This document shows, piece by piece, positions 8,321-56,869 of a stretch of DNA of 64,000 nucleotides. The translations under genes were made by a program, and so were the position numbers. A model generated the notes under the pieces. That model had not been told where the DNA came from and searched no databases. It saw only the letters and a list, made by a program, of their open reading frames with translations. Within the stretch, counting starts at the first letter, position 1, and each line of letters begins with the position of its first letter. Origin of the DNA: an uncultured Muribaculaceae bacterium (GTDB lineage: Bacteria; Bacillota_I; Bacilli_A; RF39; UBA660); NCBI GenBank assembly GCA_964425325.1, contig CAYRLX010000001.1, positions 10,791-74,790 of the forward strand, read 5' to 3'.

Positions 8321-8358
8321 TAAAAATAAATAATCAAAAAATATATAATATATCCAAT

Positions 8359-8387
8359 TTGACAAAAATAAGGTTTTATGATAGTAT
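8359..8387 (+). promoter_or_regulatory. sigma-A promoter with extended -10
   Basis: TTGACA (8359-8364), 17-nt spacer, TGaTAGTAT (8379-8387). Confidence 0.65.
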
Positions 8388-8390
8388 ATT

Positions 8391-8523
8391 AACTCGTCAA
8401 AGGGAGTAGCTTATATAAACTAAAAAGTTTATAGGTATAGTTCGTCAAATCAATACGAAAGTATTCGGACTATAACATAGAAATATGAAGCAAGACTTAT
8501 ACATTGTATGGTCTTGCTTTTTT
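8391..8523 (+). promoter_or_regulatory. yybP-ykoY (Mn2+)-like riboswitch with expression-platform terminator, copy 1
   Basis: - L1-like CAAAGGGAGUAGC at 8398-8410.
- P2 hairpin 8414-8420/8427-8433.
- 9-bp helix UAUAGUUCG/CGGACUAUA (8436-8444/8466-8474) enclosing UCAAAUCA plus an AUAC-GAAA-GUAU hairpin.
- CAUA-GAAA-UAUG hairpin at 8476-8487.
- Conserved AAGCAAGAC at 8488-8496, which is also the 5' arm of a 12-bp terminator (8490-8517) followed by UUUUUU.
The architecture parallels, element by element, the L. lactis Mn2+ riboswitch sequence as I recall it. Confidence 0.6.
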
Positions 8524-8564
8524 GCATATAGATCATACAAGTTGACTAGATGGAGGTGAAAAAA

Positions 8565-9062
8565 ATGAGAGAAAATAATTCAAAAGAATCTAAAATGACA
8601 GCTAAAATTACAGCAGCATATATACTTTATGCAGTTACATTAACATCTATTTATTTCACAGCACGTTGTAACCCATATGAACTAGATGAAGAAACAGATG
8701 AAAATATAATGCGCGAATATAAAGAGAGAAACTTAAAAGAAATTGAAGAAACTTTAGAACAAAGTTATGAAACAAAAATATTTGAACCAGAAGAACATAT
8801 ATTATACATGCCAGAAAGTAAAGTAAATTTACAAAGTGATGATATGGGAGATATTGAAAAAAGCAAAGTGAGTTATAGAATTATATGTCCAGAAGGGTAC
8901 GAATTATTAGGTGTTACAAATGAACATAGTGAAAATTATTATTTATTTGTAAATACTCAAACAGTAGAAGTAAAAGATGATGGAAGTGGTTCATATACAA
9001 ATTTTGGAACACCTATTGAAAAAGAAAAAAATGAAAAGACACAAAAAGTAAAAACTAAATAA
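8565..9062 (+). CDS. small membrane-anchored/secreted protein, paralogue of the 15418-15870 product
   Basis: The ORF track starts at 8550 (MEVKKM), but GGAGGTG in that stretch is a perfect SD 7 nt upstream of ATG 8565. N-terminal hydrophobic segment AAYILYAVTLTSIYFTARC. Motifs shared with the paralogue: ETK(I/V)FE, CP(E/D)GYEL, FGTPIEKEKNE.TQKVKTK. Confidence 0.7.
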   Translation: MRENNSKESKMTAKITAAYILYAVTLTSIYFTARCNPYELDEETDENIMREYKERNLKEIEETLEQSYETKIFEPEEHILYMPESKVNLQSDDMGDIEKSKVSYRIICPEGYELLGVTNEHSENYYLFVNTQTVEVKDDGSGSYTNFGTPIEKEKNEKTQKVKTK

Positions 9063-10685: not shown

Positions 10686-10716
10686 ATTTGAATGACATAC
10701 AATAAAATAATACAAT

Positions 10717-10744
10717 TTGACAAAACAATTATTTAAGATATAAT
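10717..10744 (+). promoter_or_regulatory. member of the AATTTGACAA promoter/leader family
   Basis: CAATTTGACAAAAC contains TTGACA (10717-10722); 16-nt spacer; TATAAT (10739-10744). A short UCCC/GGGG anti-SD/SD pairing follows, just before ATG 10768. Confidence 0.55.
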
Positions 10745-10767
10745 AAGTCCCAAAGGGGGGATGATTA

Positions 10768-11121
10768 ATGAACAATGATTTATTAAATTCTATTTTTTCA
10801 TCTATGAGTATAAATGATATTTTAGAAAAAATGGACGATTCACAAAGCCATATATTTTTAAGACAATTATTTAACTATTTAAAAACAGATAGTGAAAAAT
10901 ATGATGCTAACGGCTTAGGAATTGAATCTTATGTAGATTTTGTAAGATATGATAAAGAAAGTAAATCTATAGTTGTTTCAAAAGAAGAACAATACATAGA
11001 CTATACTGATGACGGAATTATAGAATATCCTGCTGGATCTAGTGAATATACAATATCAATTGATAAACTACAAAATAGAATAAACGCCTTAGTAAATCAT
11101 AAACAAACTAAAACAAGATAA
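10768..11121 (+). CDS. hypothetical protein (117 aa)
   Basis: RBS GGGGGGAUG-type purine tract; ORF followed by a terminator. Confidence 0.6.
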   Translation: MNNDLLNSIFSSMSINDILEKMDDSQSHIFLRQLFNYLKTDSEKYDANGLGIESYVDFVRYDKESKSIVVSKEEQYIDYTDDGIIEYPAGSSEYTISIDKLQNRINALVNHKQTKTR

Positions 11122-15014: not shown

Positions 15015-15211
15015 AAAAATAGTGAGAAAAATAGATGATGAAAACATATAATAGAAAAAACACATTTTAAATTATAATAGTAGACATAGTATTAGGAAGT
15101 AGAAAAGAACATACATGATATTCAAAAGTAGATATAATAATATATTAGCTTAATTTAAGATAAAGATCATCTAAAGTTAATGGGACTAATTCTTATTTTA
15201 AAAAGCCCAAT

Positions 15212-15240
15212 TTGACAAAAATAAGGTTTTATGATAGTAT
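15212..15240 (+). promoter_or_regulatory. sigma-A promoter with extended -10 (copy 2)
   Basis: TTGACA 15212-15217 and TGaTAGTAT 15232-15240, identical to copy 1. Confidence 0.65.
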
Positions 15241-15243
15241 ATT

Positions 15244-15376
15244 AACTCGTCAAAGGGAGTAGCTTATATAAACTAAAAAGTTTATAGGTATAGTTCGTCA
15301 AATCAATACGAAAGTATTCGGACTATAACATAGAAATATGAAGCAAGACTTATACATTGTATGGTCTTGCTTTTTT
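15244..15376 (+). promoter_or_regulatory. yybP-ykoY (Mn2+)-like riboswitch with terminator, copy 2
   Basis: Identical in sequence to 8391-8523 (offset +6853). Confidence 0.6.
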
Positions 15377-15417
15377 GCATATAGATCATACAAGTTGACT
15401 AGATGGAGGTGAAAAAA

Positions 15418-15870
15418 ATGAATAAAGAAGTGATCAAAAATTTAAAAGTATTCGCACTATCGACTCTTTTAACCAGTAGTATTGTACTATCAGGATGTAG
15501 TTCAAATAAGCCACTAAGTGATTATACTGATGAAGAAATAAAAGAAGAATATGAAAGACGTAGTGAAGAAACAAATCAAACATTAGAAGATAAAAGAGAA
15601 ACAAAAGTATTTGAGACAGGGCAGCACGTTATAGAAATTGTACAATTATATGATTCAATTAATTTAAAAAGAAGAATTGAATGCCCAGATGGATATGAGT
15701 TAATTTCAACATGGAGTTATAGCATAAATGATAATACGCATTTTGGCTATATTTTCTGTAATACATTACCAGTAGAGGCAAAGTTAGATGAAAATGGAGA
15801 ATATACAAAATTTGGAACACCTATTGAAAAAGAAAAAAATGAAAATACACAAAAAGTAAAAACTAAATGA
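15418..15870 (+). CDS. small lipoprotein, paralogue of the 8565-9062 product
   Basis: Start moved from 15403 to ATG 15418 (the SD GGAGGTG lies inside the longer ORF). Signal peptide with lipobox: KVFALSTLLTSSIVLSGC. The C-terminus FGTPIEKEKNENTQKVKTK is shared with the paralogue. Confidence 0.75.
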   Translation: MNKEVIKNLKVFALSTLLTSSIVLSGCSSNKPLSDYTDEEIKEEYERRSEETNQTLEDKRETKVFETGQHVIEIVQLYDSINLKRRIECPDGYELISTWSYSINDNTHFGYIFCNTLPVEAKLDENGEYTKFGTPIEKEKNENTQKVKTK

Positions 15871-18435: not shown

Positions 18436-18436
18436 A

Positions 18437-18697
18437 ATGGAAGAAGATAAAATAATTATAGAAACAAAAGAAGGTCCAAAAGAATTTTATAAATTGGCTA
18501 CATTTTACAGTAACAAAAGAGATAAAAGATATTTAATATATACAGATAAAGAATATACAGACGGCTTATTAAATGTTTATGGAAGTATCATAGAAACAGG
18601 AAATGATAAAGTAAAATTTATCGAATTAGATGAAGAAGATAAAAAAATAATAGAAAAAGCAATAAATAAATTAAAAGAAAGCAATATAACTATCTAA
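18437..18697 (+). CDS. DUF1292-like small acidic protein (86 aa)
   Basis: Starts 1 nt after the PP2C gene stop. The pattern E..G.E.EFyklatF......YLIYTD......L.vyg..IE.....v.fieLdEEd resembles the DUF1292 family. Confidence 0.45.
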   Translation: MEEDKIIIETKEGPKEFYKLATFYSNKRDKRYLIYTDKEYTDGLLNVYGSIIETGNDKVKFIELDEEDKKIIEKAINKLKESNITI

Positions 18698-18726
18698 TAA
18701 AAAATTATGATAGTAGAAGGTGTTAT

Positions 18727-20571
18727 ATGCAAAAATATAAAAATAAAATCAAAGATATCATTTTAAATGGCAAAGAGGAAGTATTTAAAAAAAGACAAAA
18801 AGAAATTGCTCCAAAATTAAAAGAGATAATTAATGAATATAAGAAAATTATATCAGAAAATAAAGAACTATTTGATAATTATCATAATTCATTTTATGAT
18901 GAAAAAAATATAGACACGGCTAATGAATTAATTAACTATTTTAGTAATGAATTAAATAAACTAGAACTTACAGAGTTCGATTTAGATTTAATAATTGACG
19001 ACAATAAAATGACACTTCTAGATTTTATATTAAAATATAAACCAGCGCTTACCTTAGATAATTTCAGTTTAGGTGGTTCATATAATAAAATAGGAATTAA
19101 ATTCCTAGAAAAAATATTAACTAGCAATGACAAAGAATATATAAAATATCTCCATGAAATAGGCTTTTATGGAAGTCCAGAATTATTTTTAACAGAAATA
19201 AATGGGAAAAAAGTAATAGACTATTTAATTGATAATTATGAATTGTATCATAGCTTTTGTGGCATAAAGTTTAATTTAGTAATAAACGATTTTGAAGTAA
19301 AAAAATACGTATTGGATAATATCCAAACAGGAAAATATAATTTTCAAAAAAAAGAAAAAATGTTTACTATTTTAAATACAATGAATTATACAATACAAGA
19401 ATTATTCAAAACAATTACAATTAATGGTGAAAAAACAAGTATATTTGAACTTTATCTATCAGAAAATATATTAAAAGATAAATTAAATAATGTAATTGTA
19501 CCAGATTACATATTAAACATTTTAATAAGAAAATTTAAAGAAACAGATAACGAAAAATTAAAAAAAGAAATACGTGATTGTATAAATAATATTTGCTTAG
19601 ATAAGAAAGTGGTAGAAAAAATCGATGAAAAAACAAAAGACTACTTAAAAAAAGCAAACATAAATTTAAAAATAGTAAATAAAGAATATTATGAATCTGA
19701 AGAAGAAAAATTTAATAAAAAAATTGAAGAACTAATAAATATATTAAAAGAAGGAACACCTTCAACAGATAGTTTAATAAAATACGTAATAGAAAATTAT
19801 ATAAATATGTATAAAATTAATAGCCCGCTAGCCTTGACAGAAATAGAAACACTGATATTAATAAAAAAGAATAACCCAAATTTTCATATAGAAGATTCTA
19901 ATGTTGGTCCAAATTTTGATAATGACACTATTCATTTAATTTTAACAGATAAAACTCATCCACATTACCATGTTGAAGATAATTATAGTGTATTTAATCA
20001 TGAAATGACACATGCATTTCAATACTATTGCTTTAATGATAATACTCCAAGAGAGTATTATTCTACACTTCCTAATAAAGAAGATATAGCAGATTTAGTA
20101 GCAGAATACTCAGAATATATAATCAATAAAATGAACTCTGTTATTGACACTTTAAATTTAAAACCAGATTCCATTGATAAAGAAAAAAGAATAAAATATA
20201 TATCTCTTAATTTATTTGGCTACGAAAGAGAAATAATAGATATATTTGATACTATTTTATGTTTTACTGATCATCTAAAACAGTTAGGCTTTGAAAAAGC
20301 AGATTTGATTGAAGGCCATCCTTACGACTATATGAAATATGGAGGATATGACTTTTCAGAGATGCTCGCAGATTATAAGTCAGTTATGTCTTCAGATAGA
20401 GAAGAATTAAAAACAATCGTCAAAAATATATTGCCTGATAGTTGTACATATTTTATCGAAAATTTCTATATGAATATGCTAAAAAATTATATTAATATAT
20501 ATGCACATGAATATAGTGATGAAATAAGAAAAGAACAAGAAGAAATAAAAGTATCACATACTGAAAGATAA
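18727..20571 (+). CDS. hypothetical protein with HExxH zincin motif (614 aa)
   Basis: FNHEMTHAFQYY in the C-terminal third. No signal peptide. Confidence 0.55.
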   Translation: MQKYKNKIKDIILNGKEEVFKKRQKEIAPKLKEIINEYKKIISENKELFDNYHNSFYDEKNIDTANELINYFSNELNKLELTEFDLDLIIDDNKMTLLDFILKYKPALTLDNFSLGGSYNKIGIKFLEKILTSNDKEYIKYLHEIGFYGSPELFLTEINGKKVIDYLIDNYELYHSFCGIKFNLVINDFEVKKYVLDNIQTGKYNFQKKEKMFTILNTMNYTIQELFKTITINGEKTSIFELYLSENILKDKLNNVIVPDYILNILIRKFKETDNEKLKKEIRDCINNICLDKKVVEKIDEKTKDYLKKANINLKIVNKEYYESEEEKFNKKIEELINILKEGTPSTDSLIKYVIENYINMYKINSPLALTEIETLILIKKNNPNFHIEDSNVGPNFDNDTIHLILTDKTHPHYHVEDNYSVFNHEMTHAFQYYCFNDNTPREYYSTLPNKEDIADLVAEYSEYIINKMNSVIDTLNLKPDSIDKEKRIKYISLNLFGYEREIIDIFDTILCFTDHLKQLGFEKADLIEGHPYDYMKYGGYDFSEMLADYKSVMSSDREELKTIVKNILPDSCTYFIENFYMNMLKNYINIYAHEYSDEIRKEQEEIKVSHTER

Positions 20572-20592
20572 ACATGTAAGTTTATCTTTTTT
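20566..20592 (+). terminator. Rho-independent terminator
   Basis: AGATAAAC / GTTTATCT stem followed by TTTTT, overlapping the stop codon. Confidence 0.6.
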
Positions 20593-20654
20593 AACATTAG
20601 TTTGAAAAAGAGAATATTAATTGTTATAATCAACATTAGAAAAGGAGTAATAAC

Positions 20655-21155
20655 ATGTTAAAAATAAATGGCTATGAATTCGATATAAAAGAGTCAAGCA
20701 TAAATATAACCCCTTTATTTTATGCCGGAGAAGAAATATGTAAAAATGCTTATATTTTTATAGAATTTCACGACAAGAAAATAAATAATAAAACAAGAGG
20801 AGGAACATTTAGTTTTGTTATAAACAATATTTCTTTAAATGATAAAAATGAAATAATTCTTAGAAAGTACGAAAATAATGAGGAAAACGAAAAAGAAATA
20901 TATAAAAATATAAGTCATGAACTAGAAAGAATTGACACAGTTAGTTTAAAAGCTGATTATTCGACTAATATATTAGAAATAGATAATCTATGGAATGCAG
21001 ATATCTTTGATAGTAAAGCTTATATAAACTTTATCGAAAAAAAAGAAAATGAATATGTAATAAATTATTTAACTGAATTTAAAATAGAAGAAATAACACC
21101 TTACGAAGATAAAATTACATTAGAATTTAAAGGGTATTTAACATATTCTAAATAA
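20655..21155 (+). CDS. hypothetical protein (166 aa)
   Basis: RBS AAAGGAG upstream. Beta-rich, no known motif. Confidence 0.6.
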   Translation: MLKINGYEFDIKESSINITPLFYAGEEICKNAYIFIEFHDKKINNKTRGGTFSFVINNISLNDKNEIILRKYENNEENEKEIYKNISHELERIDTVSLKADYSTNILEIDNLWNADIFDSKAYINFIEKKENEYVINYLTEFKIEEITPYEDKITLEFKGYLTYSK

Positions 21156-21188
21156 AAAAAATAAAAGTAAGTTGAAGGAGTTTAAAGT

Positions 21189-22364
21189 ATGAATAAAGAA
21201 GAACTAATCAATAAAATAATCGATATAGTTAATTTTATCACAAACGGAAAAGTAAAAATGTTTAATCAAACATTTAATGGACATCCTTGTTTTTATTTAC
21301 TTCATACGAAAGAAGAACTTAAACAGAAACTAGATAGTATATTAAAAGAAAAAAAATATGACAATTACGACCTTTATTATTATACAAATTATATGTTCAA
21401 GTATATGCTGAATAAATATGATTCACATACTAAAATTAAGTTTATTAATGATAAGTACCTACCAATCAAAATAAAAATTTTTAATAAAATACCATATATT
21501 GTAGACTGCAATAATGAATATAAAAAATATAAAGGAGCTAAAATAATAAAAATTAATGATATTAATATAGATATAATCAATAAAGAGCTTGAAAAAATAA
21601 TTTGCTATCCATCTGATAATTATCTAAAAATAGAATTAGAAAAATATCTATCCGATGTAAATGTACTTAAATCATTACCATCAGTAAATATATCAAATAT
21701 AATTAAATTAAAAACAAATAAAGGTGAAATAATTTTTGATTTAGATAACTTAAGTGAATATAAAGATATAAATATAAAAGAAAACTACAGTTTAGAAATA
21801 ATAAATAAAACAGCACTAATAACATACAACTCCTGCAGAGATGAAGAAAAAATGATAGATCTTATTAACAAACTAAGTAATATGAATAAGATAGATAATT
21901 ACATAATTGATATAAGAGGAAACGGTGGAGGAAATTCAAAAGTTAATAAACCATTAGAAAAATTTCTAAAAAATAAAAAAACAATAGTACTATGTGATGA
22001 AAAAGTTTTCTCAAGTGCTATAATGATATTGATAACTCTAAAAAATCAAGGAGCGATTATCATAGGTACTCCTCCAGCTACATCTATTAATTATTTTGGT
22101 AATTGTGCAATGCAAAAAGAACTAAAAAACATGAATTTAAAAGTAATGGGAAGTGCTACTTATTGGTATTATGATGAAAATTTAAAACTTCATGGATATT
22201 ATAAAGATGATTTTAAAAAAGCACTAAAAGAAAATCCAAATATGATAAAACCTATTTTTATAGATGTAGATAAAAAGATAGAATTAACATTAGAAGATTA
22301 CATTAATAATAATGACTCAGTACTAAATTATGCATTAAATAAATTACAAGGAAAGATGAAATAA
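21189..22364 (+). CDS. S41-family (tail-specific/C-terminal processing) peptidase-like protein
   Basis: IIDIRGNGGGN matches the S41 D(L/I)RxNxGG motif, with a downstream Ser/Lys region (VFSSAIMIL...). No signal peptide. Confidence 0.55.
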   Translation: MNKEELINKIIDIVNFITNGKVKMFNQTFNGHPCFYLLHTKEELKQKLDSILKEKKYDNYDLYYYTNYMFKYMLNKYDSHTKIKFINDKYLPIKIKIFNKIPYIVDCNNEYKKYKGAKIIKINDINIDIINKELEKIICYPSDNYLKIELEKYLSDVNVLKSLPSVNISNIIKLKTNKGEIIFDLDNLSEYKDINIKENYSLEIINKTALITYNSCRDEEKMIDLINKLSNMNKIDNYIIDIRGNGGGNSKVNKPLEKFLKNKKTIVLCDEKVFSSAIMILITLKNQGAIIIGTPPATSINYFGNCAMQKELKNMNLKVMGSATYWYYDENLKLHGYYKDDFKKALKENPNMIKPIFIDVDKKIELTLEDYINNNDSVLNYALNKLQGKMK

Positions 22365-22572
22365 ATGAGAAAAATAAAAGGTAAAGAAATAAACAATTAA
22401 AAAGAAGCAAAAAAAATAAATCTAAAAGAAGTTAGAGTTGATTGTTTAGATAGCAATAAAGCATCGGTTAAAATAATAGAAGCTAATAAAGGAAAGAAAT
22501 ATAAAAGTATATTAAAAAATGGAGAGAAAATAAACTTATATATATTTGAAATATAAAAAAGAAAGGATAAAT

Positions 22573-23115
22573 ATGATAATAAATCACAAAGGAACAAAAA
22601 CTCTTAAGACAGAAAGGCTCATCTTAAAGGCAGTAGAAGAAAAAGATTATAAAAGTCTTTATGAAAATTTGTTTGGAGATAAAGAAGCGTGTGAAATATG
22701 TAAATGGAAATATTGGGAAACTTATGAAGAATTTAAGAAAGAACAAACAATTATAAAGGATAAAAATTATTATAATTGGATAATATATTTAAAAGATAAA
22801 ACACCAGTAGGTATGATTGGGGTCCATACTCAAGATGATAAAAACTATAGTTGTATTATTGGCTACCAAATTCATCCAAAATATCAAAATAATGGATACT
22901 GTACAGAAGCTTTAAAAGAGGTAGCTAGTTTTCTCATAAAGGAAGTAGGATATTACAGATTAGTTTGCGAGTATGAGGATAATAATATAGCATCTAAAAG
23001 AGTAATGGAAAAAGCAGGGTTCATTTATGAAGGAACTAATAGAAGATCAGTATATAAAAATAATAGATTTAAGGATATACACGTTTATTCATTAATCAAA
23101 GAAGATTTAAAATAA
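22573..23115 (+). CDS. GNAT N-acetyltransferase (RimJ/RimL-like)
   Basis: TERLILKAV..., QIHPKYQNNGYCTEALKEV, NIASKRVMEKAGFIYEG. Start placed at ATG 22573, after the RBS AAAGGA. Confidence 0.75.
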   Translation: MIINHKGTKTLKTERLILKAVEEKDYKSLYENLFGDKEACEICKWKYWETYEEFKKEQTIIKDKNYYNWIIYLKDKTPVGMIGVHTQDDKNYSCIIGYQIHPKYQNNGYCTEALKEVASFLIKEVGYYRLVCEYEDNNIASKRVMEKAGFIYEGTNRRSVYKNNRFKDIHVYSLIKEDLK

Positions 23116-23130
23116 ATCAATAGTGTAAAT

Positions 23131-23188
23131 TTGACAAAAATAAAAAATAATATATAATAAGCACTCGAAATTAATTAAAAAGGGAGTG
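23131..23188 (+). promoter_or_regulatory. AATTTGACAA-family promoter plus anti-SD/SD leader hairpin
   Basis: TTGACA 23131-23136, 16-nt spacer, TATAAT 23153-23158. CACTC (23162-23166) pairs with GAGTG (23184-23188) inside the SD AGGGAGTG. ATG at 23195. Confidence 0.6.
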
Positions 23189-23194
23189 AATTAT

Positions 23195-24187
23195 ATGAAA
23201 GCTGATGCTCAAGAACAAAAAAGACTACAAACAATAATGCTAACAAGTGGTTCTTCATCATATGAAACAGACTATTTTAATTCAAATTCATACAATAGTC
23301 TAAGACAGACAATGCATGAAAATTTACCTAAGAGGAATTATGAATTAAATATCCCGCTTTGCTCAAAAAGCGAAGTAATTAATGCTGGAAGATATGTTAT
23401 AGATAAACATTTCGGAAACTTAGATTTAAGGGTTAGATTTGCAGATGGAGACGACATGGAATCACAATTACATGCAATTTTTGGATCTAATCCTGCTCCA
23501 GATAAATATGAAGATATAATAAGATATATAAACAATCATATTTCTCTTTTGAAAGTAACAAATATTCCAGTTTCTCTAAACTGTAATCAAGAGACAAACG
23601 GGTATGTAAGGTCAACAATTTTTTATAATCCAAATGATATGGAAGAAGAGTATTTTAAAAATCTCCCAGACTGTGTGAGCAAAATAGGATTAGAAGGACC
23701 ATGTAATGAAAATATGAAATGCATGCACGTTCACGAAATGGCTCATGCATTAATTAACAGACATAAAGGAAGCATACAAAACTTGTTAAATGATGAGGCT
23801 TTTTCAATATTTATGGAAAAAGTTGCTGCAGATGATCTTGACCCAGACGGAAAATTACTAGACTTCAAAACAATAATTAGATTATTACAAATAAAACAAA
23901 ATATATTAGATAATGAAGTATTAGAATATAATGAAAGCAACTTCTTAGGAGCACTTCAAGTCAAAAAATATATAATATCTACTCTGCACGCTACCGCACT
24001 TTTTAATACATATTCAAGATCAAGTAAAAAAATTAAAAAAGAAATAGATACATCTTTAGGAAAAGTTATTTGCGGAGAAGATACCTTAGAAAGTGTTTTA
24101 GAACATTATGAAGCTAGCTTAGATAGAGGAACTAGAATAATGAATAGGCAAATAAAAGAATATCAAAAAAAGATTGCCAAGAACTAA
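23195..24187 (+). CDS. hypothetical protein with HExxH zincin motif (330 aa)
   Basis: HVHEMAHALINRH. Start placed at ATG 23195 rather than GTG 23186 because of SD spacing. Confidence 0.55.
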   Translation: MKADAQEQKRLQTIMLTSGSSSYETDYFNSNSYNSLRQTMHENLPKRNYELNIPLCSKSEVINAGRYVIDKHFGNLDLRVRFADGDDMESQLHAIFGSNPAPDKYEDIIRYINNHISLLKVTNIPVSLNCNQETNGYVRSTIFYNPNDMEEEYFKNLPDCVSKIGLEGPCNENMKCMHVHEMAHALINRHKGSIQNLLNDEAFSIFMEKVAADDLDPDGKLLDFKTIIRLLQIKQNILDNEVLEYNESNFLGALQVKKYIISTLHATALFNTYSRSSKKIKKEIDTSLGKVICGEDTLESVLEHYEASLDRGTRIMNRQIKEYQKKIAKN

Positions 24188-24259
24188 GTAAGGTATAAAT
24201 AATACTTTACTTTTTTAATGTAAGCATTTATCATAATATTAGAAAAAAGGAAGTGACCT

Positions 24260-24712
24260 ATGAAAAATTTAAGAGAATTTAGATATGCATTTGTGTACAA
24301 AGATGAAGATTTAACCAAGGGCAAGATAAGTGCAAAATTTACTAAAGAAAAAGAAATAAAGAAAAATATAAAAACAAAAAAAGGATTTGTTATTAACTTA
24401 ATAGCATATAACAGTAAAAATGAGGAATATGAAATTAATATGTTACTAAACTTAGATAAAGAAGAATTAAATAACATGCCTAATAAATTTGTTAATATAT
24501 CTGATAAAGAATGTTTTATTGATTTTTATAGGCCTAATATAAATAACGTTCCTACTATTGGATTAAGTAGAGTTGATGATTTATATTCAAATCCAGGAAA
24601 TATATGGGTACTAAAAGAAAGTGATAATACATACTTTTTTAAAATATCTATTCCAGAGGAAAATCTATTTATATGGTTTTATTTAGAAAAGGATATGATA
24701 GTGAATGAATAA
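24260..24712 (+). CDS. hypothetical protein (150 aa)
   Basis: RBS AAGGAAG upstream. Overlaps the next gene by 8 nt (ATGAATAA). Confidence 0.6.
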   Translation: MKNLREFRYAFVYKDEDLTKGKISAKFTKEKEIKKNIKTKKGFVINLIAYNSKNEEYEINMLLNLDKEELNNMPNKFVNISDKECFIDFYRPNINNVPTIGLSRVDDLYSNPGNIWVLKESDNTYFFKISIPEENLFIWFYLEKDMIVNE

Positions 24713-25256
24713 TAAAGAAGAATATTTTAAAGCACAAATAAAACTTAACAATTTCTATAATTTATATAACTCAATAGATAAAAAAACTAACAAAAAAATA
24801 AAAGATATATTTGATTATAAAAGAATAAAAGATAATACTTTTATATTCGATAAATATACTTCTATTCTCTATGAAGAAATGATAAATATTATTTATGATT
24901 GTTTCAAATTTCAATTACAAACAATTTATAAACTATTAAATAACAAAGAAGAAAATAATATTAAAACAATTATTAATGACATGCCAGTTCAAATAATAAA
25001 TGTAATCAATAAAAGCTTATTTGATGAAATTAAATTAGAAGATTTTATAAATATTAAAGAAGAAAAAGACAAACCTACATTATATTATGTATCTACATGC
25101 TGCGATTACTTAATGGATATATTAGAAATGTTCTATGAAACTGAGAAGTATGAAAAAACAAGAGAAAAATTCTTACAAAGAGATGAAGGAATAGAAGAAA
25201 AACAAGTATTAGACCTAATAAAAGCAAATAAAGGTAATAATAAAGTAAATAAATAA
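24705..25256 (+). CDS. hypothetical protein (183 aa)
   Basis: Translationally coupled to the 24260-24712 gene. Confidence 0.6.
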   Translation: MNNKEEYFKAQIKLNNFYNLYNSIDKKTNKKIKDIFDYKRIKDNTFIFDKYTSILYEEMINIIYDCFKFQLQTIYKLLNNKEENNIKTIINDMPVQIINVINKSLFDEIKLEDFINIKEEKDKPTLYYVSTCCDYLMDILEMFYETEKYEKTREKFLQRDEGIEEKQVLDLIKANKGNNKVNK

Positions 25257-25295
25257 AATAATAATGTATTAAAGCATATATAAAAAGGTGATAAA

Positions 25296-25868
25296 ATGAA
25301 TAACTTATATTTAATAGAAGATAGTGAAATGAAAGATATCGAAAAAATAAAAGAATATAATGAAGATTTTATGAGAGCAAACCCTAATTGGATACCATTT
25401 GTTACAGAAGATAATTTTGAAGAATTTTTAAAAGAAATAGAAGATAAAAAACAAGGAATTGGAAATGACGGATTAAAGGAAATATTTTACTGGTTTATGG
25501 AAGAAGGCAAAATAATAGGATCTGGAAGTATAAGATTAAATCCAGAAATAGATGAATATACAGAAAAAGTATGTGGACATTTATTTTATCAAATTATCCC
25601 TTCTAAAAGAGGAAAAGGTTATGGAACTATGCTTTGTCATTTACTTTTAGAAAAAATGAAAGAATTAGGATTCAAAGAAGCATTAATCTCATGTTTTGAT
25701 ACAAATATTGGATCTATAAAGATAATAGAAAACAATGGCGGACAGTTTATAGAATATTATATTGATGAAAATGAACAAAACCCAGAATATAGAAAAAACA
25801 GAAGATATAAATTTGATATTGAAAAATCTTTAGAACAATTTGATATAAAAACAATAATAAAAAAATAA
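25296..25868 (+). CDS. GNAT acetyltransferase (paralogue of the 32288-32893 product)
   Basis: GHLFYQIIPSKRGKGYGTMLCHLLLEKMKELGFKEALISC...NIGSIKIIENNGGQF. Collinear with the 32288 gene product. Confidence 0.7.
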   Translation: MNNLYLIEDSEMKDIEKIKEYNEDFMRANPNWIPFVTEDNFEEFLKEIEDKKQGIGNDGLKEIFYWFMEEGKIIGSGSIRLNPEIDEYTEKVCGHLFYQIIPSKRGKGYGTMLCHLLLEKMKELGFKEALISCFDTNIGSIKIIENNGGQFIEYYIDENEQNPEYRKNRRYKFDIEKSLEQFDIKTIIKK

Positions 25869-25920
25869 TTAACAATTATACTTAAATAAATGATATAATA
25901 AACTAGAAAGTAGGGATATA

Positions 25921-26520
25921 ATGGATGGATTAAATATAACACCAATGGATATCTATAATGAAAACGAAGATGATTTAGATATTGATACTATCATTTATTA
26001 TTTATTAAAAGGTGGAGAACTAGATGAAGTTCCAGAAAAATTTATAACACAAGAACATTTATACTATTCACTCCAAAGTATTTCTGATAAAATTTTAGCA
26101 GGAAAAGGAAAAGAAATTTCACCGGTTGTTACTAAATTCATTCAACGATATTTGGGAATAGGCGCTAAAAAGAAAATAAATAGTAGTAAAATCAGACTAT
26201 CTTATGATGAATATTATGCAGCATCATGGGGTGCTAATTGGTTAAAGTATTTTAGATTTGACGAAAAATATAAAAATGTTAACGGTAAAATAACAACAAT
26301 TAAATACATAGGAGAAGATGGCAGTCAAATAGAAATCACCAAAGAAATGGCTGAAGAAGTAATTAGCATATTAATTGAAAATGATATACAACCTATTAAC
26401 TGTATAGTAAATACTGCACTGTTAAAATATGCAGGCGGTAATTTAGAACAATTAATCACACAAATAAAATCTTATGATAATTATAAAAGTGAAACAGAAA
26501 AAAATGCTAGAAGACGATAA
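25921..26520 (+). CDS. hypothetical protein (199 aa)
   Basis: ORF with upstream purine-rich RBS (AGTAGGGA). No motif. Confidence 0.55.
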   Translation: MDGLNITPMDIYNENEDDLDIDTIIYYLLKGGELDEVPEKFITQEHLYYSLQSISDKILAGKGKEISPVVTKFIQRYLGIGAKKKINSSKIRLSYDEYYAASWGANWLKYFRFDEKYKNVNGKITTIKYIGEDGSQIEITKEMAEEVISILIENDIQPINCIVNTALLKYAGGNLEQLITQIKSYDNYKSETEKNARRR

Positions 26521-26565
26521 AGTCTCCTAGTATTTTTTTATATAAAAAAGGTAATTAATGTGAAT

Positions 26566-26633
26566 TTGACAAAAACATAAAAAAGCTTATAATAAACACC
26601 CGAAATTGAAAGATTTATATCTAAAAGGGGTGT
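26566..26633 (+). promoter_or_regulatory. AATTTGACAA-family promoter plus anti-SD/SD leader hairpin
   Basis: TTGACA 26566-26571, 16-nt spacer, TATAAT 26588-26593. ACACCC (26596-26601) pairs with GGGTGT (26628-26633) in the SD. The leader shares C(T/C)CGAAATT with the 23161 leader. Confidence 0.6.
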
Positions 26634-26638
26634 TATAA

Positions 26639-27988
26639 ATGACTGAAGAGTTATATAACAAGTTGAGTTTGTATAAAGATTCAATCTTGTGTCTTAGATT
26701 TAACTCACTTGAAAATATGAATACGGAAGAAATAAAAAAACATTTTGAAAAAAGTATCACTAATATTAAAAACATACTAAATAATATTCAAAATGACAAA
26801 AACATTGATGTCTTTATTAACATAATTACAGAAATAAAAATAGAATTAAGAAGAGAATTACTAGAAGAATGCCAGGAAAAGGCAGCTGTAATGAACCAGT
26901 ACGGAACGCAGTATATTGGAGCAGAAGACTATAATCCGATACTAATAAGAAATTACTTAATAGAATTATGTGAAAATACAATAAAAGAAGTATTAAATCC
27001 ACAAGAAGATGAAGAAATAGATGAAATTGAAGAAGCAAAAACAAATAAAATATACTTATATTCATCAAAAATGCCGAAGTCAAAAAATGATTTTAAATCA
27101 TTGAAATTGATTAGGGAAGATTTAGAAAGCATACCAGATGTATACTACGGATCTTTCCAAACAATAATTAAAGAAATGCATTCTGGAATTTGCGATGGAA
27201 GAGAACATAAATGTAAAGTACTTAACAATTCTAAATTGGGAGGTACTCGTGAACACAGAGCGTACCATGGAGTTCGTCTATATGAAAATACAATTCAAAC
27301 ATATAATAATAAAATTAGAAAAAAAATAAAAAGTTTAGAAAAGGAACTAGGTGCTGAAATACACTTTGTATATAAATTAGAAATAAAAAAATGTAATCAA
27401 ACTAATGGACTTGATGAAGAACGTGAAAAAAGGTATAAAAATGAGAATAATAATTATGAGGAACTCATAGAAAGTTTAACAGCAGATGATGTTAAAAGAT
27501 TAGCTGATGAAACATATGAAATAATAAATAAATATCTAGAAGACAATAAAAAAGATAAAACCAAAGAAGAAATAGATGAAGAAATCACACTATATACTGT
27601 AATAGATATCATAAATACTTATTTACACACTAACTACAATTTAAATAATAATTCAGTATTTGAATTTACTGAAGAAAGAGCCATAGAAAATGAAAGATAT
27701 CAAATATACAAGAGAGTTTTAATTTATCTCAACTCTAAAGAACTAGGAGAATTAAAAGAATTATCAAAAATATTTAACTCAATTGATAACAACAATAATG
27801 ATAATTGTTCTGCGGATAAAGAGAAAGATATAATAATATCAATAATTATGTACTTATTAAGAAAAATGACTCTAGAAGAATTAAAAGAAACAGAAATAAA
27901 CATTTTATTGTTAATAGACTATAAAGATGAATATTTAATAAAAGACCAGACACAAAAAGAGGAGGGCGAGTATGGTAGAAAGTCATAA
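26639..27988 (+). CDS. hypothetical protein (449 aa) with a possible RelE/ParE/Gp49-like core
   Basis: aa 137-245: IYLYSSKMPKSKNDFKSLK...IREDLESI...KVLNNSKLGGTREHRAYHGVRLYE...IHFVYKLEIKK. This resembles the toxin-fold sequence pattern (..L.g..g..E.R....G.Rl.Y). The match is weak and made by eye only. Confidence 0.5.
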   Translation: MTEELYNKLSLYKDSILCLRFNSLENMNTEEIKKHFEKSITNIKNILNNIQNDKNIDVFINIITEIKIELRRELLEECQEKAAVMNQYGTQYIGAEDYNPILIRNYLIELCENTIKEVLNPQEDEEIDEIEEAKTNKIYLYSSKMPKSKNDFKSLKLIREDLESIPDVYYGSFQTIIKEMHSGICDGREHKCKVLNNSKLGGTREHRAYHGVRLYENTIQTYNNKIRKKIKSLEKELGAEIHFVYKLEIKKCNQTNGLDEEREKRYKNENNNYEELIESLTADDVKRLADETYEIINKYLEDNKKDKTKEEIDEEITLYTVIDIINTYLHTNYNLNNNSVFEFTEERAIENERYQIYKRVLIYLNSKELGELKELSKIFNSIDNNNNDNCSADKEKDIIISIIMYLLRKMTLEELKETEINILLLIDYKDEYLIKDQTQKEEGEYGRKS

Positions 27989-28700
27989 AAAAATTAAAAA
28001 CATTGAAAGCAACAATAGAAAATCAAAAAAATATAGATTGTTAACTGACTCAAATATTAAATATGCCGTTTTTGAGGAAAAAGATTTAAATACACGTTAC
28101 TTCATGTACTTTGTAAAAAAATACTGCTTAAGTAATGGAATTAAATTTGATATAAAGAATTTTGATAATAAAGAATTTACAGACTGGATACATGAATATA
28201 TACAAATCACAAATGATTATGCTAAATTTTTAACATCATATGACATTGATTTAAACTGCCCTTCTCTAGCAGAAACAGGAAAAGGAAAATTTGATTCAAT
28301 CATAGGACCAGAAGCAAGTGAAATATCTATTTTCTCAGAAATAATGGAAAGACCAAAAATAATTTTTGGAGATGTTGAGAAAGGACTATTAATACATGAT
28401 AATAGAAGAATAATAACATTAGATGATTTAAATATAGATACATTAATAACACAAAACCCAAACTTCTTCACTGAAGTGGAAGACTTTACTACATTTGCGA
28501 ATAGTCTAAACAAAAATATTACTTTTGGAGTATATGGTAATTTTAGCGATAAAGATATAAAAAATAAGACAAATATGATAAAAAGACTTTTGGAAAACAC
28601 AAGTGACACAATATTCGAGTATGACACATTTAAAGATTGTTTCTATATGTTAGTTACTACAAGAAGACAAAAAATAAAAACTAAAACATTAAGTTTGTAG
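27972..28700 (+). CDS. hypothetical protein (242 aa)
   Basis: Overlaps the upstream gene by 17 nt. RBS GAGGAGGG. Confidence 0.55.
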   Translation: MVESHKKIKNIESNNRKSKKYRLLTDSNIKYAVFEEKDLNTRYFMYFVKKYCLSNGIKFDIKNFDNKEFTDWIHEYIQITNDYAKFLTSYDIDLNCPSLAETGKGKFDSIIGPEASEISIFSEIMERPKIIFGDVEKGLLIHDNRRIITLDDLNIDTLITQNPNFFTEVEDFTTFANSLNKNITFGVYGNFSDKDIKNKTNMIKRLLENTSDTIFEYDTFKDCFYMLVTTRRQKIKTKTLSL

Positions 28701-28711
28701 AAGGTGAAAAG

Positions 28712-30337: not shown

Positions 30338-30474
30338 TGACAGATGAAGAATTAATGCAATTATCAGAACAGCAATTACAAGAACTAATTAAAAACACAA
30401 AACTAGAAATAGAAAAAATAAAATTACAAAATTTAAAAAAGAAAATAATCATTAATGAAACTTTAAATAACTAA
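30337..30474 (+). CDS. small coiled-coil ORF (45 aa), not in the ORF track
   Basis: Its ATG overlaps the TAA of the upstream gene (TAATG). It encodes MTDEELMQLSEQQLQELIKNTKLEIEKIKLQNLKKKIIINETLNN. Confidence 0.35.
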   Translation: MTDEELMQLSEQQLQELIKNTKLEIEKIKLQNLKKKIIINETLNN

Positions 30475-30499
30475 AAAAAATGATATATAGGTGGATTAT

Positions 30500-30893
30500 A
30501 TGGAAAGCTATTTAAAATATGTTATATATATAATTGACAAAGATGGGCGTGAATTTTATGTTCCAACAAACGAAAACTATCATAAACACATACAAGCATT
30601 TAAAAAATTGTAATCTGAAAATACATCATTGAATTTAGATAATTATATAAATTATAAAGGGACCAACAATATTACAGGTTATGAGTTAGTATCACTTCTT
30701 GGAGCAAATGGAAACATAGTATTTTTTCATACAGATGTAGCAAATTATATAAAAATAAAAAAGAAGGAACAATTATAATTCCAAATAATCTTACTAATAT
30801 ACAAAAGAAAAAACTAATAGAATTAATTGATAATTTAAATAAAGAAGAGTTTTCATTTTATGTTACTGAATCAAAATTTAAAAACAATAAATA
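30500..30893 (+). pseudogene. decayed gene (in-frame TAA at 30611 and a frameshift near the A-run about 30752-30765)
   Basis: RBS TAGGTGGA plus ATG 30500. Three consecutive reading segments give coherent protein-like sequence: MESYLKYVIYIIDKDGREFYVPTNENYHKHIQAFKKL * SENTSLNLDNYINYKGTNNITGYELVSLLGANGNIVFFHTDVANYIKIKK / GTIIIPNNLTNIQKKKLIELIDNLNKEEFSFYVTESKFKNNK. Confidence 0.45.
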
Positions 30894-32199: not shown

Positions 32200-32210
32200 G
32201 AAAACATAGA

Positions 32211-32242: not shown

Positions 32243-32287
32243 GCTAAATAATAAATAAGAATGTATAATGAAAATAGGAGGTAAAAA

Positions 32288-33908: not shown

Positions 33909-33977
33909 GATTAAAATCATATAGTAATATCAAGTAGTAGATCTTTTAAAATGTAAAAAAAGACATTTAGTGTGAAT

Positions 33978-34030
33978 TTGACAAAAATAAATATTAGTAT
34001 TAATATATCCTCCTGTAAACAAAGGGGGAT
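33978..34030 (+). promoter_or_regulatory. AATTTGACAA-family promoter plus anti-SD/SD leader hairpin
   Basis: GTGAATTTGACAAAAAT with TTGACA 33978-33983, 17-nt spacer, TAATAT 34001-34006. ATCCTCC (34007-34013) pairs with GGGGGAT (24024-34030 region, i.e. 34024-34030). ATG at 34037. Confidence 0.55.
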
Positions 34031-34036
34031 TTTATT

Positions 34037-34444
34037 ATGGAAAAAACTATTATAAAACCAGGTATAGTACTAATAAAAAAAGATGGAATCATATATGAGT
34101 TAGATAAAAAGACACTTCAAACAATTAAAGCAATAGTATTTGATACTGACTGTAATTTATGTAAACTATGTAATAATACAAAGTGTAAGTTATCAAAAAA
34201 AATTGAAGATGAATTTATAACTGATGCATTGACATTGAAAACAAAACCAAATTGTGAATATGTACTTGGATGCGATAATTTTGAACTAAAAGGGCAGTAT
34301 AACGATGCTCCAAGACTAGTATGGTTTAGTACAGATTTTGAAGAAGAAATGAATGATGATGAAATAACAATTAGACATTATAATGAAGCTCATGTTCATC
34401 ACATAGCTCATCCAACTATCGCAAGACATATTGATAAAATATAA
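34037..34444 (+). CDS. small Cys-rich protein (135 aa), family with the 56615 and 56897 gene products
   Basis: DCNLCKLCNNTKC ...KKIEDEFITDA... VLGCDNFE. The same LCxxCxxxxC...(V/I)(L/T)(D/G)C(D/P)(N/D)(F/Y) pattern occurs in the other two. Confidence 0.6.
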   Translation: MEKTIIKPGIVLIKKDGIIYELDKKTLQTIKAIVFDTDCNLCKLCNNTKCKLSKKIEDEFITDALTLKTKPNCEYVLGCDNFELKGQYNDAPRLVWFSTDFEEEMNDDEITIRHYNEAHVHHIAHPTIARHIDKI

Positions 34445-56530: not shown

Positions 56531-56555
56531 AGAAGCAAAAGCTTCTTTTTTTTTG
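56531..56555 (+). terminator. Rho-independent terminator
   Basis: AGAAGC AAAA GCTTCT followed by T9. Confidence 0.8.
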
Positions 56556-56562
56556 CGTCAAT

Positions 56563-56609
56563 TTGACAACAAACAAAAAAAGTATATAATAAAGTCTCCG
56601 TAAGGGGGA
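56563..56609 (+). promoter_or_regulatory. AATTTGACAA-family promoter plus anti-SD/SD leader hairpin
   Basis: TCAATTTGACAACA with TTGACA 56563-56568, 16-nt spacer, TATAAT 56585-56590. TCTCC (56595-56599) pairs with GGGGA (56605-56609). ATG at 56615. Confidence 0.6.
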
Positions 56610-56614
56610 AAATT

Positions 56615-56869
56615 ATGAAAAATAAGAAAAAAGTAGCAATAAAAATAAATAACAAAATAATTAATACCGACGGCATCAAACTAAGTGAAGAAGAAATAGA
56701 ATTACTAAAAAAAGTGTTTTTTAATGGTGAGGTATCCTTATGTAAAACATGTAAAGCTAAAGTGTGTTTTGCAAACAAAGAAGATTTAACAGGAGCCATT
56801 AAAGAAGGTATGAGCTCATCAATCGAAACAATCATCACAGATTGTCCTAACTATAGAAAAGGTTTATAA
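56615..56869 (+). CDS. small Cys-rich protein (84 aa), family with the 34037 and 56897 gene products
   Basis: SLCKTCKAKVCFANKEDLTGAIKEG....IITDCPNY. Confidence 0.6.
   Translation: MKNKKKVAIKINNKIINTDGIKLSEEEIELLKKVFFNGEVSLCKTCKAKVCFANKEDLTGAIKEGMSSSIETIITDCPNYRKGL

Follow-up and report, generated by a model that had tools for sequence, protein, structure and literature searches.

A near-consensus promoter with a short leader stands in front of several different genes in a 64,000-nt stretch of DNA (the window) from an uncultured bacterium. The question was whether these sites are copies of a duplicated or mobile cassette whose mRNA begins with an anti-Shine-Dalgarno (anti-SD) tract, as suggested in an earlier note on this DNA, or belong to a more general kind of promoter. 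The host genus consists of uncultured gut Bacilli of low GC content and small genome size (RF39/'Mycoplasma sp. CAG:877'-like). On balance, the seven sites are probably promoters of the housekeeping sigma factor (sigma-70/sigma-A type) and belong to a class typical of this genus, in which the C tract would be the discriminator; a mobile cassette is not supported.

The sites were named 8356, 10714, 15209, 23128, 26563, 33975 and 56560, the TTGACA of each beginning 3 nt further (8359, 10717 and so on). The motif AATTTGACAAMA matched seven times in the window, against 0.12 expected (the mean of the shuffled sequences, which never reached seven), and 10 times across the 987-kb assembly. The seven motif positions reported earlier were all correct, and all seven window copies of the 12-mer, AATTTGACAA(A/C)A, lie on the + strand. 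The 10 genome-wide copies are all intergenic and each sense-upstream of an ORF; the reversed 12-mer gave 4 genome-wide matches. The distance from the -35 to the start codon is 38-73 nt in eight of these copies and 191 nt in two. The window makes up 6.5% of the assembly yet holds 7 of the 10 copies (binomial P = 5e-7, or P = 5e-6 with the duplicated pair counted once). It is probably promoter-rich because kb 7-35 form a variable region with many small accessory or ORFan genes, each transcribed on its own, to which one segmental duplication is added. No DNA-level conservation of kb 18-36 was seen in 64 congeners, whereas cysS is conserved.

Perfect hexamers separated by 16 nt (a score of 12/12) were found at four of the window sites (TTGACA at 10717, 23131, 26566 and 56563). 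The other three (8359, 15212 and 33978) score 10/12 with a 17-nt spacer, since the -10 hexamer is TAATAT at 33978 and TAGTAT at 8359 and 15212. The description of all seven as near-consensus promoters thus stands for the hexamers and for the extended -35 context, which is not random, but the perfect N16 form is restricted to four sites. The features are collected in Table 1.

Table 1. Promoter-leader sites in the window; positions of bases after the -10 hexamer are given in brackets.
Site	Feature	Extent	Strand	-35 region	Spacer	-10	Segment after -10	First purine past pyrimidine run	Downstream G-rich segment	Start codon	Arm pair
8356	Promoter and long leader, small lipoprotein-like gene	8354..8568	+	TTGACA 8359	17 nt	TG-extended TAGTAT					
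10714	Promoter-leader, 117-aa gene	10706..10770	+	10717-10722	16 nt	end 10744	TCCC 10748-10751	A 10752 (position 8)	SD GGGGGG	ATG 10768	TCCC 10748 / GGGG 10755
15209	Copy 2 of the identical promoter-leader, ahead of a paralogous gene	15207..15421	+	TTGACA 15212							
23128	Promoter-leader, 330-aa HExxH gene	23120..23197	+	upstream TAGTGTA; TTGACA 23131-23136	16 nt, A-rich	TATAAT 23153-23158	AAGCACTC 23159-23166	G 23167 (position 9)	SD GGGAGTG 23182-23188	ATG 23195	CACTC 23162 / GAGTG 23184
26563	Promoter-leader, four-gene operon (first gene 449 aa)	26555..26641	+	26566-26571	16 nt	end 26593	AAACACCC 26594-26601	G 26602 (position 9)	SD GGGGTGT ~26627-26633	ATG 26639	ACACCC 26596 / GGGTGT 26628
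33975	Promoter-leader, 135-aa 4-Cys ORFan gene	33967..34039	+	33978-33983	17 nt	TAATAT, end 34006	ATCCTCC 34007-34013 (positions 1-7)	G 34015 (position 9)	GGGGGAT 34024-34030	ATG 34037	ATCCTCC 34007 / GGGGGAT 34024
56560	Promoter-leader, 84-aa 4-Cys gene	56552..56617	+	56563-56568	16 nt	end 56590	TCTCC 56595-56599	G 56600 (position 10)	SD GGGGG	ATG 56615	TCTCC 56595 / GGGGA 56605

The genes behind these promoters had been called unrelated. This is only partly true: the genes following 23128, 26563 and a copy outside the window, C10:27480, encode proteins with no detectable mutual similarity, but several gene pairs turned out to be paralogs. The HExxH gene at 23195 has a paralog on C8 (31% identity, E = 2e-37) with the same promoter type, and the gene at 56615 is a weak paralog of that at 34037 (E = 0.003), for which no homolog was present in 64 congeners. 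The 8354..8568 and 15207..15421 segments are a 215-nt repeat of 100% identity ahead of genes 8550 and 15403, which share 40% amino acid identity, and sites 8356 and 15209 therefore count as one event. Their leader carries a terminator-like hairpin, and the -35 lies 191 nt ahead of the start codon. It had been labelled a riboswitch; Rfam gave no match for 8300-8620 even at E <= 1, and only two tRNAs in the whole window. The 117-aa gene at 10768 is followed by two genes of the beta-lactamase fold and an HD-domain gene. No common function of the module-driven genes was found, and most of them encode no Pfam domain. The exceptions stand behind class promoters in other parts of the genome and encode a regulator of NrtR-like type, one of AraC type and a C26 peptidase.

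The promoter architecture is spread through all 65 genomes of the genus set. The 12-mer was present in all 12 congeners first sampled (1-6 copies each), and TGTRAATTTGACAAA in 16 of the 65 genomes, with its reversed control in none. Perfect TTGACA-N16-TATAAT, counted only for matches ending in A or T, occurred in 60 of 61 genomes at about 6.7 per genome, as compared with about 0.4 for the control. The class is built of a -35 region (TGTRA)AT-TTGACA-AAW, a 16-nt A-rich spacer and TATAAT, followed by A at the first base, C/pyrimidine-rich and G-poor positions 3-7, and a purine, often G, at positions 8-10. Among 130 non-redundant copies, A accounts for 78% at position 1 and C for 30, 30 and 28% at positions 4, 6 and 7; G makes up 6% at positions 6-7 but 30% at position 8, where the first pyrimidine-purine step most often falls. 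Two or more C at positions 3-8 were found in 46% of the perfect N16 promoters against 14% of the perfect N17 promoters (P = 5e-6). The rRNA promoters of the genus, examined upstream of 16S in G000, G009, G012 and G058, consist of two or three tandem TTGACT/C/A-N17-TATATT units with A tracts and G/T-rich discriminators, and none of these four genomes showed a C tract there. Membership of the sites in an rRNA-like group was rejected, the rRNA promoters being built differently. Transcription by the primary sigma factor and considerable promoter strength would fit the hexamers, although the presence of five sigma-70-family genes in the genome counts against a certain assignment to the primary one.

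Outside this genus, the sites most resemble the sigma-70/sigma-A promoters of low-GC Firmicutes in their perfect or near-perfect hexamers, the 16-17 nt spacer, the gene-facing position, the AT-rich surroundings and, in some copies, a TG beside the -10. They depart from the generic sigma-A consensus in that the N16 subclass of the genus has its -35 preceded by AAT and followed by AAW, an A-rich spacer, and, after the -10, A followed by a C-rich stretch, all missing from the perfect N17 and rRNA promoters of the genus. In the E. coli rrnB P1 type the spacer is 16 bp, the discriminator is G+C-rich and transcription starts 9 bp past the -10 (PMC5730371). Judged by sequence, the sites are similar to it in spacer, near-consensus hexamers, pyrimidine/C-rich discriminator and a likely start 8-10 bp past the -10. 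The parallel does not extend to function in rRNA synthesis, as the rRNA operons of this genus use tandem N17 promoters of another class.

The hexamers and every coordinate of the five arm pairs reported earlier were confirmed. The five arms all fall within positions 1-9 past the -10 hexamer, starting 1-5 nt from it, and stop just short of the first purine at +8 to +10. In E. coli, transcription starts at positions 6, 7, 8 and 9 after the -10 make up 8, 55, 29 and 7%; starts nearer to the -10 are rare, and a pyrimidine-rich discriminator shifts the start downstream (PMC5730371). A start in the usual range would thus fall within or past the arms. By these rules, the purine at +8 to +10 would be the start site, and the C-rich tract would be the discriminator between the -10 and the start, hence outside the mRNA. 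The resulting leaders would be short (~15-40 nt), A-rich and unstructured, with a G-run Shine-Dalgarno. If fully transcribed, the five hairpins fold with -5.4 to -11.8 kcal/mol (-5.4 kcal/mol at 23128), and this energy drops to 0 to -2.5 kcal/mol once the start is placed at position 7 or beyond. With the arms so close to the -10 and stability lost in this way, the claim that the transcript begins with the anti-SD tract is doubtful. By analogy with E. coli, a bacterium of another phylum, most or all of the 5' arm probably lies outside the transcript of its own promoter.

The claim of a selected pairing between arm and Shine-Dalgarno fared no better, as three permutation tests were not significant. 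Complementarity in the genus (n = 110) averaged 7.74 against 7.57 for mismatched pairs (P = 0.19), the leaders of the HExxH family (n = 12) gave P = 0.15, and G000 showed no excess over mismatched pairs. Some leaders of the HExxH family look compensatory by eye (CACTC/GAGTG, CCAAC/GTTGG, AGCTC/GAGCT); covariation was nevertheless rejected, given the non-significant permutation for the family as a whole. The sole real ortholog found for the 26639 gene, in G054 (41% amino acid identity), keeps the -35 context and the A-rich spacer and has GTAAATTTGACAAATAATAAAAAAAGTTTATAAT followed by ATGTGTG, and the C tract is absent. Within the N16 class, the C tract shows a weak association with a GGGG-type Shine-Dalgarno (odds ratio 2.4-3.1, P ~0.05), and between classes the association is clear (36% vs 15%, P = 0.002). 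If the tract acted at the DNA level alone, this association would not be expected, unless the members of the class share descent. The anti-SD/SD hairpin is probably for the most part a by-product of base composition, since a C-rich discriminator followed by a G-rich Shine-Dalgarno will always resemble such a hairpin on paper.

Two other accounts of the hairpin were weighed against this. The mechanism of the earlier note has transcription start at or before the pyrimidine tract, so that the 5' end of the mRNA pairs with the Shine-Dalgarno as a stabiliser or as a translational gate, the latter being, for example, a thermosensor or a hairpin that a protein or a small RNA opens. The folding energies agree with this, three of the five hairpins being better than shuffles (z = -2.3 to -2.8; the others z = -0.42 at 10714 and -0.96 at 23128), as do the association of the C tract with GGGG-type sites and the apparent compensatory changes in some HExxH paralogs. 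There is also precedent in 5'UTR stem-loops that sequester the Shine-Dalgarno, such as that of IS200 tnpA, whose Shine-Dalgarno is AAGGGGGU (PMC4513863), and which likewise has a pyrimidine tract complementary to a G-run site a few nt ahead of the start codon. We consider this mechanism unlikely all the same: it demands an upstream start that is rare for a sigma-70-type polymerase (PMC5730371), the stability is lost with starts from position 7 onwards, the pairing does not surpass that of mismatched pairs in all three tests, the arm is missing in the G054 ortholog, and a G027 hairpin of the same type lies ~50 nt upstream of the real Shine-Dalgarno. The sites differ from the IS200 tnpA loops and from RNA thermometers in that the 5' arm abuts the -10 and so is probably untranscribed, and in a pairing that neither is conserved nor covaries. 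In the second account the hairpin insulates the gene. Transcription would start inside or after the 5' arm, leaving the Shine-Dalgarno free in the gene's own mRNA, while read-through transcripts carrying both arms would have it hidden or, at 33975, be terminated at the hairpin and a U-rich tail. IS200 blocks impinging transcription and conceals its Shine-Dalgarno (PMC4513863). Protection by 'fold-back' of this kind is used by IS10. An arm directly ahead of the putative start is what such a device would need; 23128, 10714 and 33975 each follow an upstream gene with no terminator detected between, and the 34007-34030 hairpin fits the terminator pattern, as do look-alikes of the 33975 module that stand ahead of other genes in G002 and G027. 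Yet the complementarity does not exceed that of mismatched pairs, a U tail follows just one of the five hairpins, and those of 23128 and 10714 are weak. Sites 56560 and 26563 would need no insulator, because a terminator-like hairpin is already upstream (at 56529-56548, directly before the 56552..56617 segment, in the former case). Insulation appears improbable.

A further matter is how the copies came to resemble each other. Sites 23128, 26563 and C10:27480 form a sub-family with 80-84% identity over 50 nt (80% between 26563 and 23128), which 33975 joins loosely; other listed pairs are at 68-78%. At 36 non-core positions, sub-family pairs agree in 24-25, where the null gives 12.7 +/- 3.4, and three pairs this alike were seen among 78 where ~0.2 were expected. 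Because of this likeness, some of the copies may share descent, as far as can be judged by alignment. The earlier view of the modules as homologous finds some support in 23128, 26563 and C10:27480, and loosely in 33975, whose likeness exceeds that expected from the promoter consensus alone. Shared descent would probably have come about by gene duplication followed by rapid divergence of the coding sequence, with no mobile element involved. The similarity block of the sub-family extends from -73 to -1 relative to the start codon, and a six-way alignment confined the likeness to about -45 to +15, roughly the footprint of RNA polymerase. Neither the repeat search nor the alignment revealed flanking repeats, no target duplications or recombinase genes were found beside the block, and the inverted repeats and defined ends of a miniature mobile element (Correia/MITE-like) were not seen, the flanks being dissimilar. 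A likeness that ends at the promoter footprint without flanking repeats, an architecture that is genus-wide and its retention at an ortholog of 41% identity all argue against a mobile or duplicated cassette.

A less specific form of reuse, in which modules of ~60-90 nt (23128, 26563, C10:27480, 33975 and look-alikes) were copied or recombined before different genes, is possible but somewhat doubtful. Alternatively, the module may have kept its location, and the fast-evolving coding sequences behind it diverged past recognition or were replaced. Besides the excess of alike pairs and the dissimilar proteins of the sub-family, isolated BLAST islands of 60-95 nt in other genomes match the 23128 and 33975 modules at 76-89% identity and stand ahead of mostly non-homologous genes, a likeness greater than a loose consensus would account for, and 7 of the 10 copies cluster within 64 kb. 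Against this, 18 of the 50 aligned positions are promoter core, which inflates the identity, and the remainder is low-complexity and A-rich. The A-rich spacer is also kept at the true ortholog (41% amino acid identity), and selection alone can therefore maintain such similarity. The edges of the block bear no trace of a move, several of the "unrelated" gene pairs are paralogs, and the closest congener in the genus set, with a cysS DNA identity of at most 76%, is too far to catch one. Putative mobile promoters have been surveyed in the -150 to -50 regions of genes at >=80% identity over >=50 nt, with paralogs excluded (Matus-Garcia, Nijveen & van Passel 2012; PMC3575422). The present sites resemble them in having similar upstream sequences before apparently non-homologous genes, three copies reaching 80% over 50 nt; they differ in that the block is the core promoter and leader, the identity is largely consensus and several pairs are paralogous. 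It is quite unlikely that TTAGTGTRAAT-TTGACA-AAAAT is a transcription factor operator, or a -35 element read by one of the four smaller proteins of the sigma-70 family, co-regulating accessory genes. For such a regulon speak the five occurrences of TGTRAATTTGACAAA in G000 and as many as four in G032, G042 and G050 (control none), the quasi-palindrome TGTRAA-T-TTGACA, and a sigma-70-family gene whose end lies just before the C10 copy. The hexamers match the textbook consensus of the primary sigma factor, however, the extension is missing at 10714, 56560, 8356 and 15209, and no candidate regulator was identified. In seven genomes the TGTRAATTTGACAAA extension heads a conserved LPxTG surface-protein gene, which fits a 'strong promoter' equally. 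There is a slim chance that reuse and insulation are joined in a genus-wide promoter-leader family of ~60-90 nt, reused before fast-evolving or orphan accessory genes, whose promoter is nested in a hairpin as a built-in insulator. With a start in or just past the 5' arm, its own mRNA would be translated freely, and read-through would have the Shine-Dalgarno hidden or be terminated at 33975. T4-type phages are said to carry PeSL (promoter-early stem-loop) cassettes, reportedly described by Arbiol, Comeau and Krisch in 2010, which are alike in the reuse of promoter and hairpin ahead of small, fast-evolving, strain-variable ORFs. The present sites are on a bacterial chromosome, and their hairpin is downstream of the -10, whereas that of PeSL is a terminator upstream of the promoter.

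For sequence-only reading the sites carry a caution, as a pyrimidine-rich discriminator together with a G-run ribosome site mimics an anti-SD hairpin. If the nested-hairpin module were real, it would be a compact insulator making each small gene an independent expression unit. Insulation by the hairpin, or reuse of promoters ahead of orphan genes, would if true be relevant to the way in which new or acquired genes gain expression signals. The main value of the genus-typical promoter class is as an annotation aid, in the form of a strong-promoter consensus for an uncultured, reduced-genome gut lineage (RF39-like Bacilli). Two promoter classes can be distinguished, one of N16 spacing that has a C-rich discriminator and one of N17 spacing that lacks it, and they could aid the prediction of transcription units and the choice of expression signals.

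A search of the window for the 12-mer AATTTGACAA(A/C)A gave exactly the seven + strand sites of the earlier note, where dinucleotide shuffles predict 0.12, and the coordinates of hexamers and pairing arms in that note were all correct; its sequence observation is sound. Ten copies are present in the entire source assembly (G000), each intergenic and in sense orientation before an ORF, at 38-73 nt from the -35 to the start codon in eight copies and 191 nt in two. Since this genome-wide search gave a frequency upstream of genes that is not merely that of chance, the motif is genuinely a feature of promoters. Of the ten copies, seven fall within the 6.5% of the genome covered by the window (P = 5e-7; 5e-6 with the duplicated pair counted once). 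They cluster there because kb 7-35, a run of short accessory genes each separately transcribed, needs many promoters, and one extra copy is due to a segmental duplication. A comparable local density was found on contig 11, with four perfect N16 promoters (16 nt between TTGACA and TATAAT) in 26 kb.

The assembly (987 kb, 25 contigs, G+C ~27%, standard genetic code, completeness ~90%) represents a lineage that we take to be RF39-type Bacilli with a reduced genome; the nearest named records in a PNPase comparison were uncultured gut 'Tenericutes/Bacilli' MAGs and 'Mycoplasma sp. CAG:877'. The window corresponds to C1:10791-74790 of this assembly. Nearly all its genes lie on the + strand, and the products of kb 7-35 include proteins of the beta-lactamase-fold, HD, PP2C, GNAT and HExxH kinds, alongside many that lack a domain. 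Across 64 congeneric genomes, 18000-36000 had almost no counterpart at the DNA level; the adjacent cysS was the only part of kb 18-38 kept in all of them (65-76% identity). The 135-aa four-Cys protein (34037-34444) behind site 33975 had no homolog in any of the 64 congeners, and the 449-aa operon gene at 26639 had one real ortholog, in genome G054, and one marginal match, in G040. The HExxH family has a patchy distribution, being present in 22 of 41 genomes, and it frequently occurs in tandem pairs (G035, G024, G029, G004); its relatives within the genus share at most 47% identity with the window copy (23195-24187), which marks it as a fast-evolving accessory family.

The same promoter features recur throughout the genus. 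The 12-mer was present in 12 of the 12 congeners first sampled, in 1-6 copies each (reversed control, 0-4), which puts the source genome with its 10 copies at the high end. A longer form, TGTRAATTTGACAAA, occurred in 16 of 65 genomes, at most 5 times per genome (control, 0), and perfect TTGACA-N16-TATAAT, counting only matches that end in A or T, in 60 of 61 genomes at ~6.7 per genome (control, ~0.4). Profiling of 130 non-redundant N16 promoters showed A at 70% and 62% in the two positions that follow TTGACA, an A-rich spacer, and A at 78% in the position that follows the -10. C made up 30/30/28% at positions 4/6/7 after the -10 against 14% genome-wide, G just 6% at positions 6-7 and then 30% at position 8, the commonest place of the first pyrimidine-purine step. 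Among perfect hexamers in the same genomes, N17 promoters had at least two C at positions 3-8 in 14% of cases versus 46% for N16 (P = 5e-6) and a GGGG-type SD in 15% versus 36% (P = 0.002); their commonest first base after the -10 was T, no C tract was seen, and their ribosome sites were mostly GGAGG/AGGTG. The 16S rRNA promoters differ from both classes: two or three stand in tandem ~95 nt apart, each built of an A tract followed by TTGACT/C/A and TATATT with a TG-containing 17-nt spacer between them, an arrangement kept across four genomes, including G000:C15:18700-19560. Because its features are found genus-wide, the module described in the earlier note is, judged by sequence, an instance of a lineage-typical promoter class and not peculiar to the window.

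Coordinates of promoter-associated features (C, contig of the source assembly; arm positions counted after the -10 hexamer)
Feature	Location	Strand	Remarks
5' arm, site 10714	positions 4-7
5' arm, site 23128	positions 4-8
5' arm, site 26563	positions 3-8
5' arm, site 33975	positions 1-7
5' arm, site 56560	positions 5-9
Identical promoter-leader, 215 nt	8354-8568 and 15207-15421	+	GGGAGTAG motif, terminator-like hairpin
Perfect-hexamer promoters, examples of the two-class split	C1:21507, 33921, 37356, 67353		split seen across 65 genomes
sigma-70-family gene	C10:26822-27028
sigma-70-family gene	window 44031-44672
sigma-70-family gene	C10:23516
sigma-70-family gene	C11:37468
sigma-70-family gene	C4:10558

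Several other loci were noted. The ~1-Mb genome holds five sigma-70-family genes, four of ~210-260 aa; one ends immediately upstream of the contig 10 module copy, and the one in the window is followed directly by a perfect TTGACA-N17-TATAAT at 44669. An NrtR-like regulator gene (degenerate Nudix plus winged-helix; C11:27195, - strand; orthologs in G034:C34, G002:C19 and G005:C27) carries a conserved palindrome, GCGTAA-N4/5-TTACGC, between -10 and SD, probably an autoregulatory operator rather than an RNA hairpin. At C18:9000-11800 a 625-aa surface protein, acidic and rich in repeats and bearing an LPKTG sortase signal, has the promoter GTGTGGATTTGACAAAT...TAATAT-ATGCACTCG; the same type (TGTRAATTTGACAAAT...TATTAT) is kept in six congeners, compared as promoter only (G032:C73, G028:C45, G060:C59, G042:C48, G050:C17, G003:C14). 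Probably this promoter is strong and its product a major surface protein.

The earlier note had read the copies as a duplicated or mobile cassette in front of unrelated genes. That the genes are unrelated is only partly true, because several prove related. A 215-nt repeat, 100% identical, holds sites 8356 and 15209; it lies within a larger segmental duplication, and the genes behind the two sites are paralogs (40% identity). The leader had no Rfam cmscan match, whether at the gathering score or with E <= 1, and its proposed identity as a yybP-ykoY Mn riboswitch was thus not reproduced with this tool. On contig 8 there is a paralog (31% identity, E = 2e-37) of the 330-aa HExxH gene that follows 23128, and its promoter is of the same type; a weak similarity (E = 0.003) links the small four-Cys genes that follow 33975 and 56560. 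Among the set compared, just three genes, those downstream of 10714, 26563 and the contig 10 copy (C10:27480), were without relatives; most downstream genes lack a Pfam domain.

The claim that the modules are homologous rather than convergent was supported in part. Copies 23128, 26563 and C10:27480 share 80-84% identity over 50 nt and agree at 24-25 of the 36 non-hexamer positions (null, 12.7 +/- 3.4), and 3 such pairs were seen against ~0.2 expected. When the window was compared with the genus by BLAST, isolated islands of 60-95 nt turned up that are 76-89% identical to the modules at 23128 and 33975 and mostly precede non-homologous genes; one, in G002:C7, precedes a distant homolog of the contig 10 gene (32% identity, E = 4e-5). 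This pattern fits loose families by descent, and the three most similar copies just reach the numerical threshold of a survey of putative mobile promoters (PMC3575422), although that survey's frame and its exclusion of paralogs are not satisfied here. The likeness is, however, confined to about -45 to +15, and no flanking repeats were found around the similar block. Selection can also hold such similarity, because the A-rich spacer is kept at the G054 ortholog of the 26639 gene (41% amino-acid identity). Coding sequences evolve very fast, as the 135-aa ORFan and the HExxH family indicate, and therefore paralogs may be unrecognisable; the nearest sampled genomes are too far away to catch a transposition or swap, given the divergence of cysS. 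With the class present genus-wide, a mobile cassette is not supported.

The proposed anti-SD/SD hairpin, as stabiliser or translational gate, was likewise not borne out. Assuming full transcription after the -10, the five leaders have folding energies of -5.4 to -11.8 kcal/mol; three fold better than shuffles (z = -2.3 to -2.8) and two do not. Four of the five arms stop one base short of the first purine (position 8, 9 or 10), and 33975 has one extra pyrimidine, T 34014, between. In E. coli the sigma-70 polymerase initiates at positions 6/7/8/9 with frequencies of 8/55/29/7% (PMC5730371). Were initiation here at position 7 or beyond, the predicted folds would weaken to 0 to -2.5 kcal/mol; if E. 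coli rules carry over to this lineage, this geometry would count against a functional RNA hairpin. Complementarity of the 9-13 nt directly following the -10 (12 nt in the comparison across the genus) was no higher to the own SD region than to those of other genes in the source genome (113 promoters, 13 of them perfect N16), genus-wide (n = 110; mean score 7.74 against 7.57, P = 0.19) or among HExxH homologs (n = 12, P = 0.15), in a test blind to selection for a single shared CCCC/GGGG pairing; C count and G-run SD were weakly associated (Spearman rho = 0.19, P = 0.04). The G054 ortholog of the 26639 gene keeps GTAAATTTGACAAATAATAAAAAAAGTTTATAAT, followed by ATGTGTGAAAAGGGGG without the C tract, and has a leader of 20 nt. 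Look-alikes of the 33975 hairpin (34007-34030) occur in G002:C8, G002:C7 and G027:C33, the G027 one ~50 nt before the real SD. With the following TTTATTAT this hairpin also matches an intrinsic-terminator pattern, and it could stop transcripts from the upstream 347-aa gene. Because of geometry, specificity, conservation and SD position, the pairing is read as probably, in the main, incidental: a C-rich discriminator happens to precede a G-rich ribosome site.

Reuse of the module is ordinary resemblance among promoters of one class, some copies possibly being related by duplication. On its sequence features, the module reads as a strong, lineage-typical promoter of housekeeping type with a short unstructured leader.
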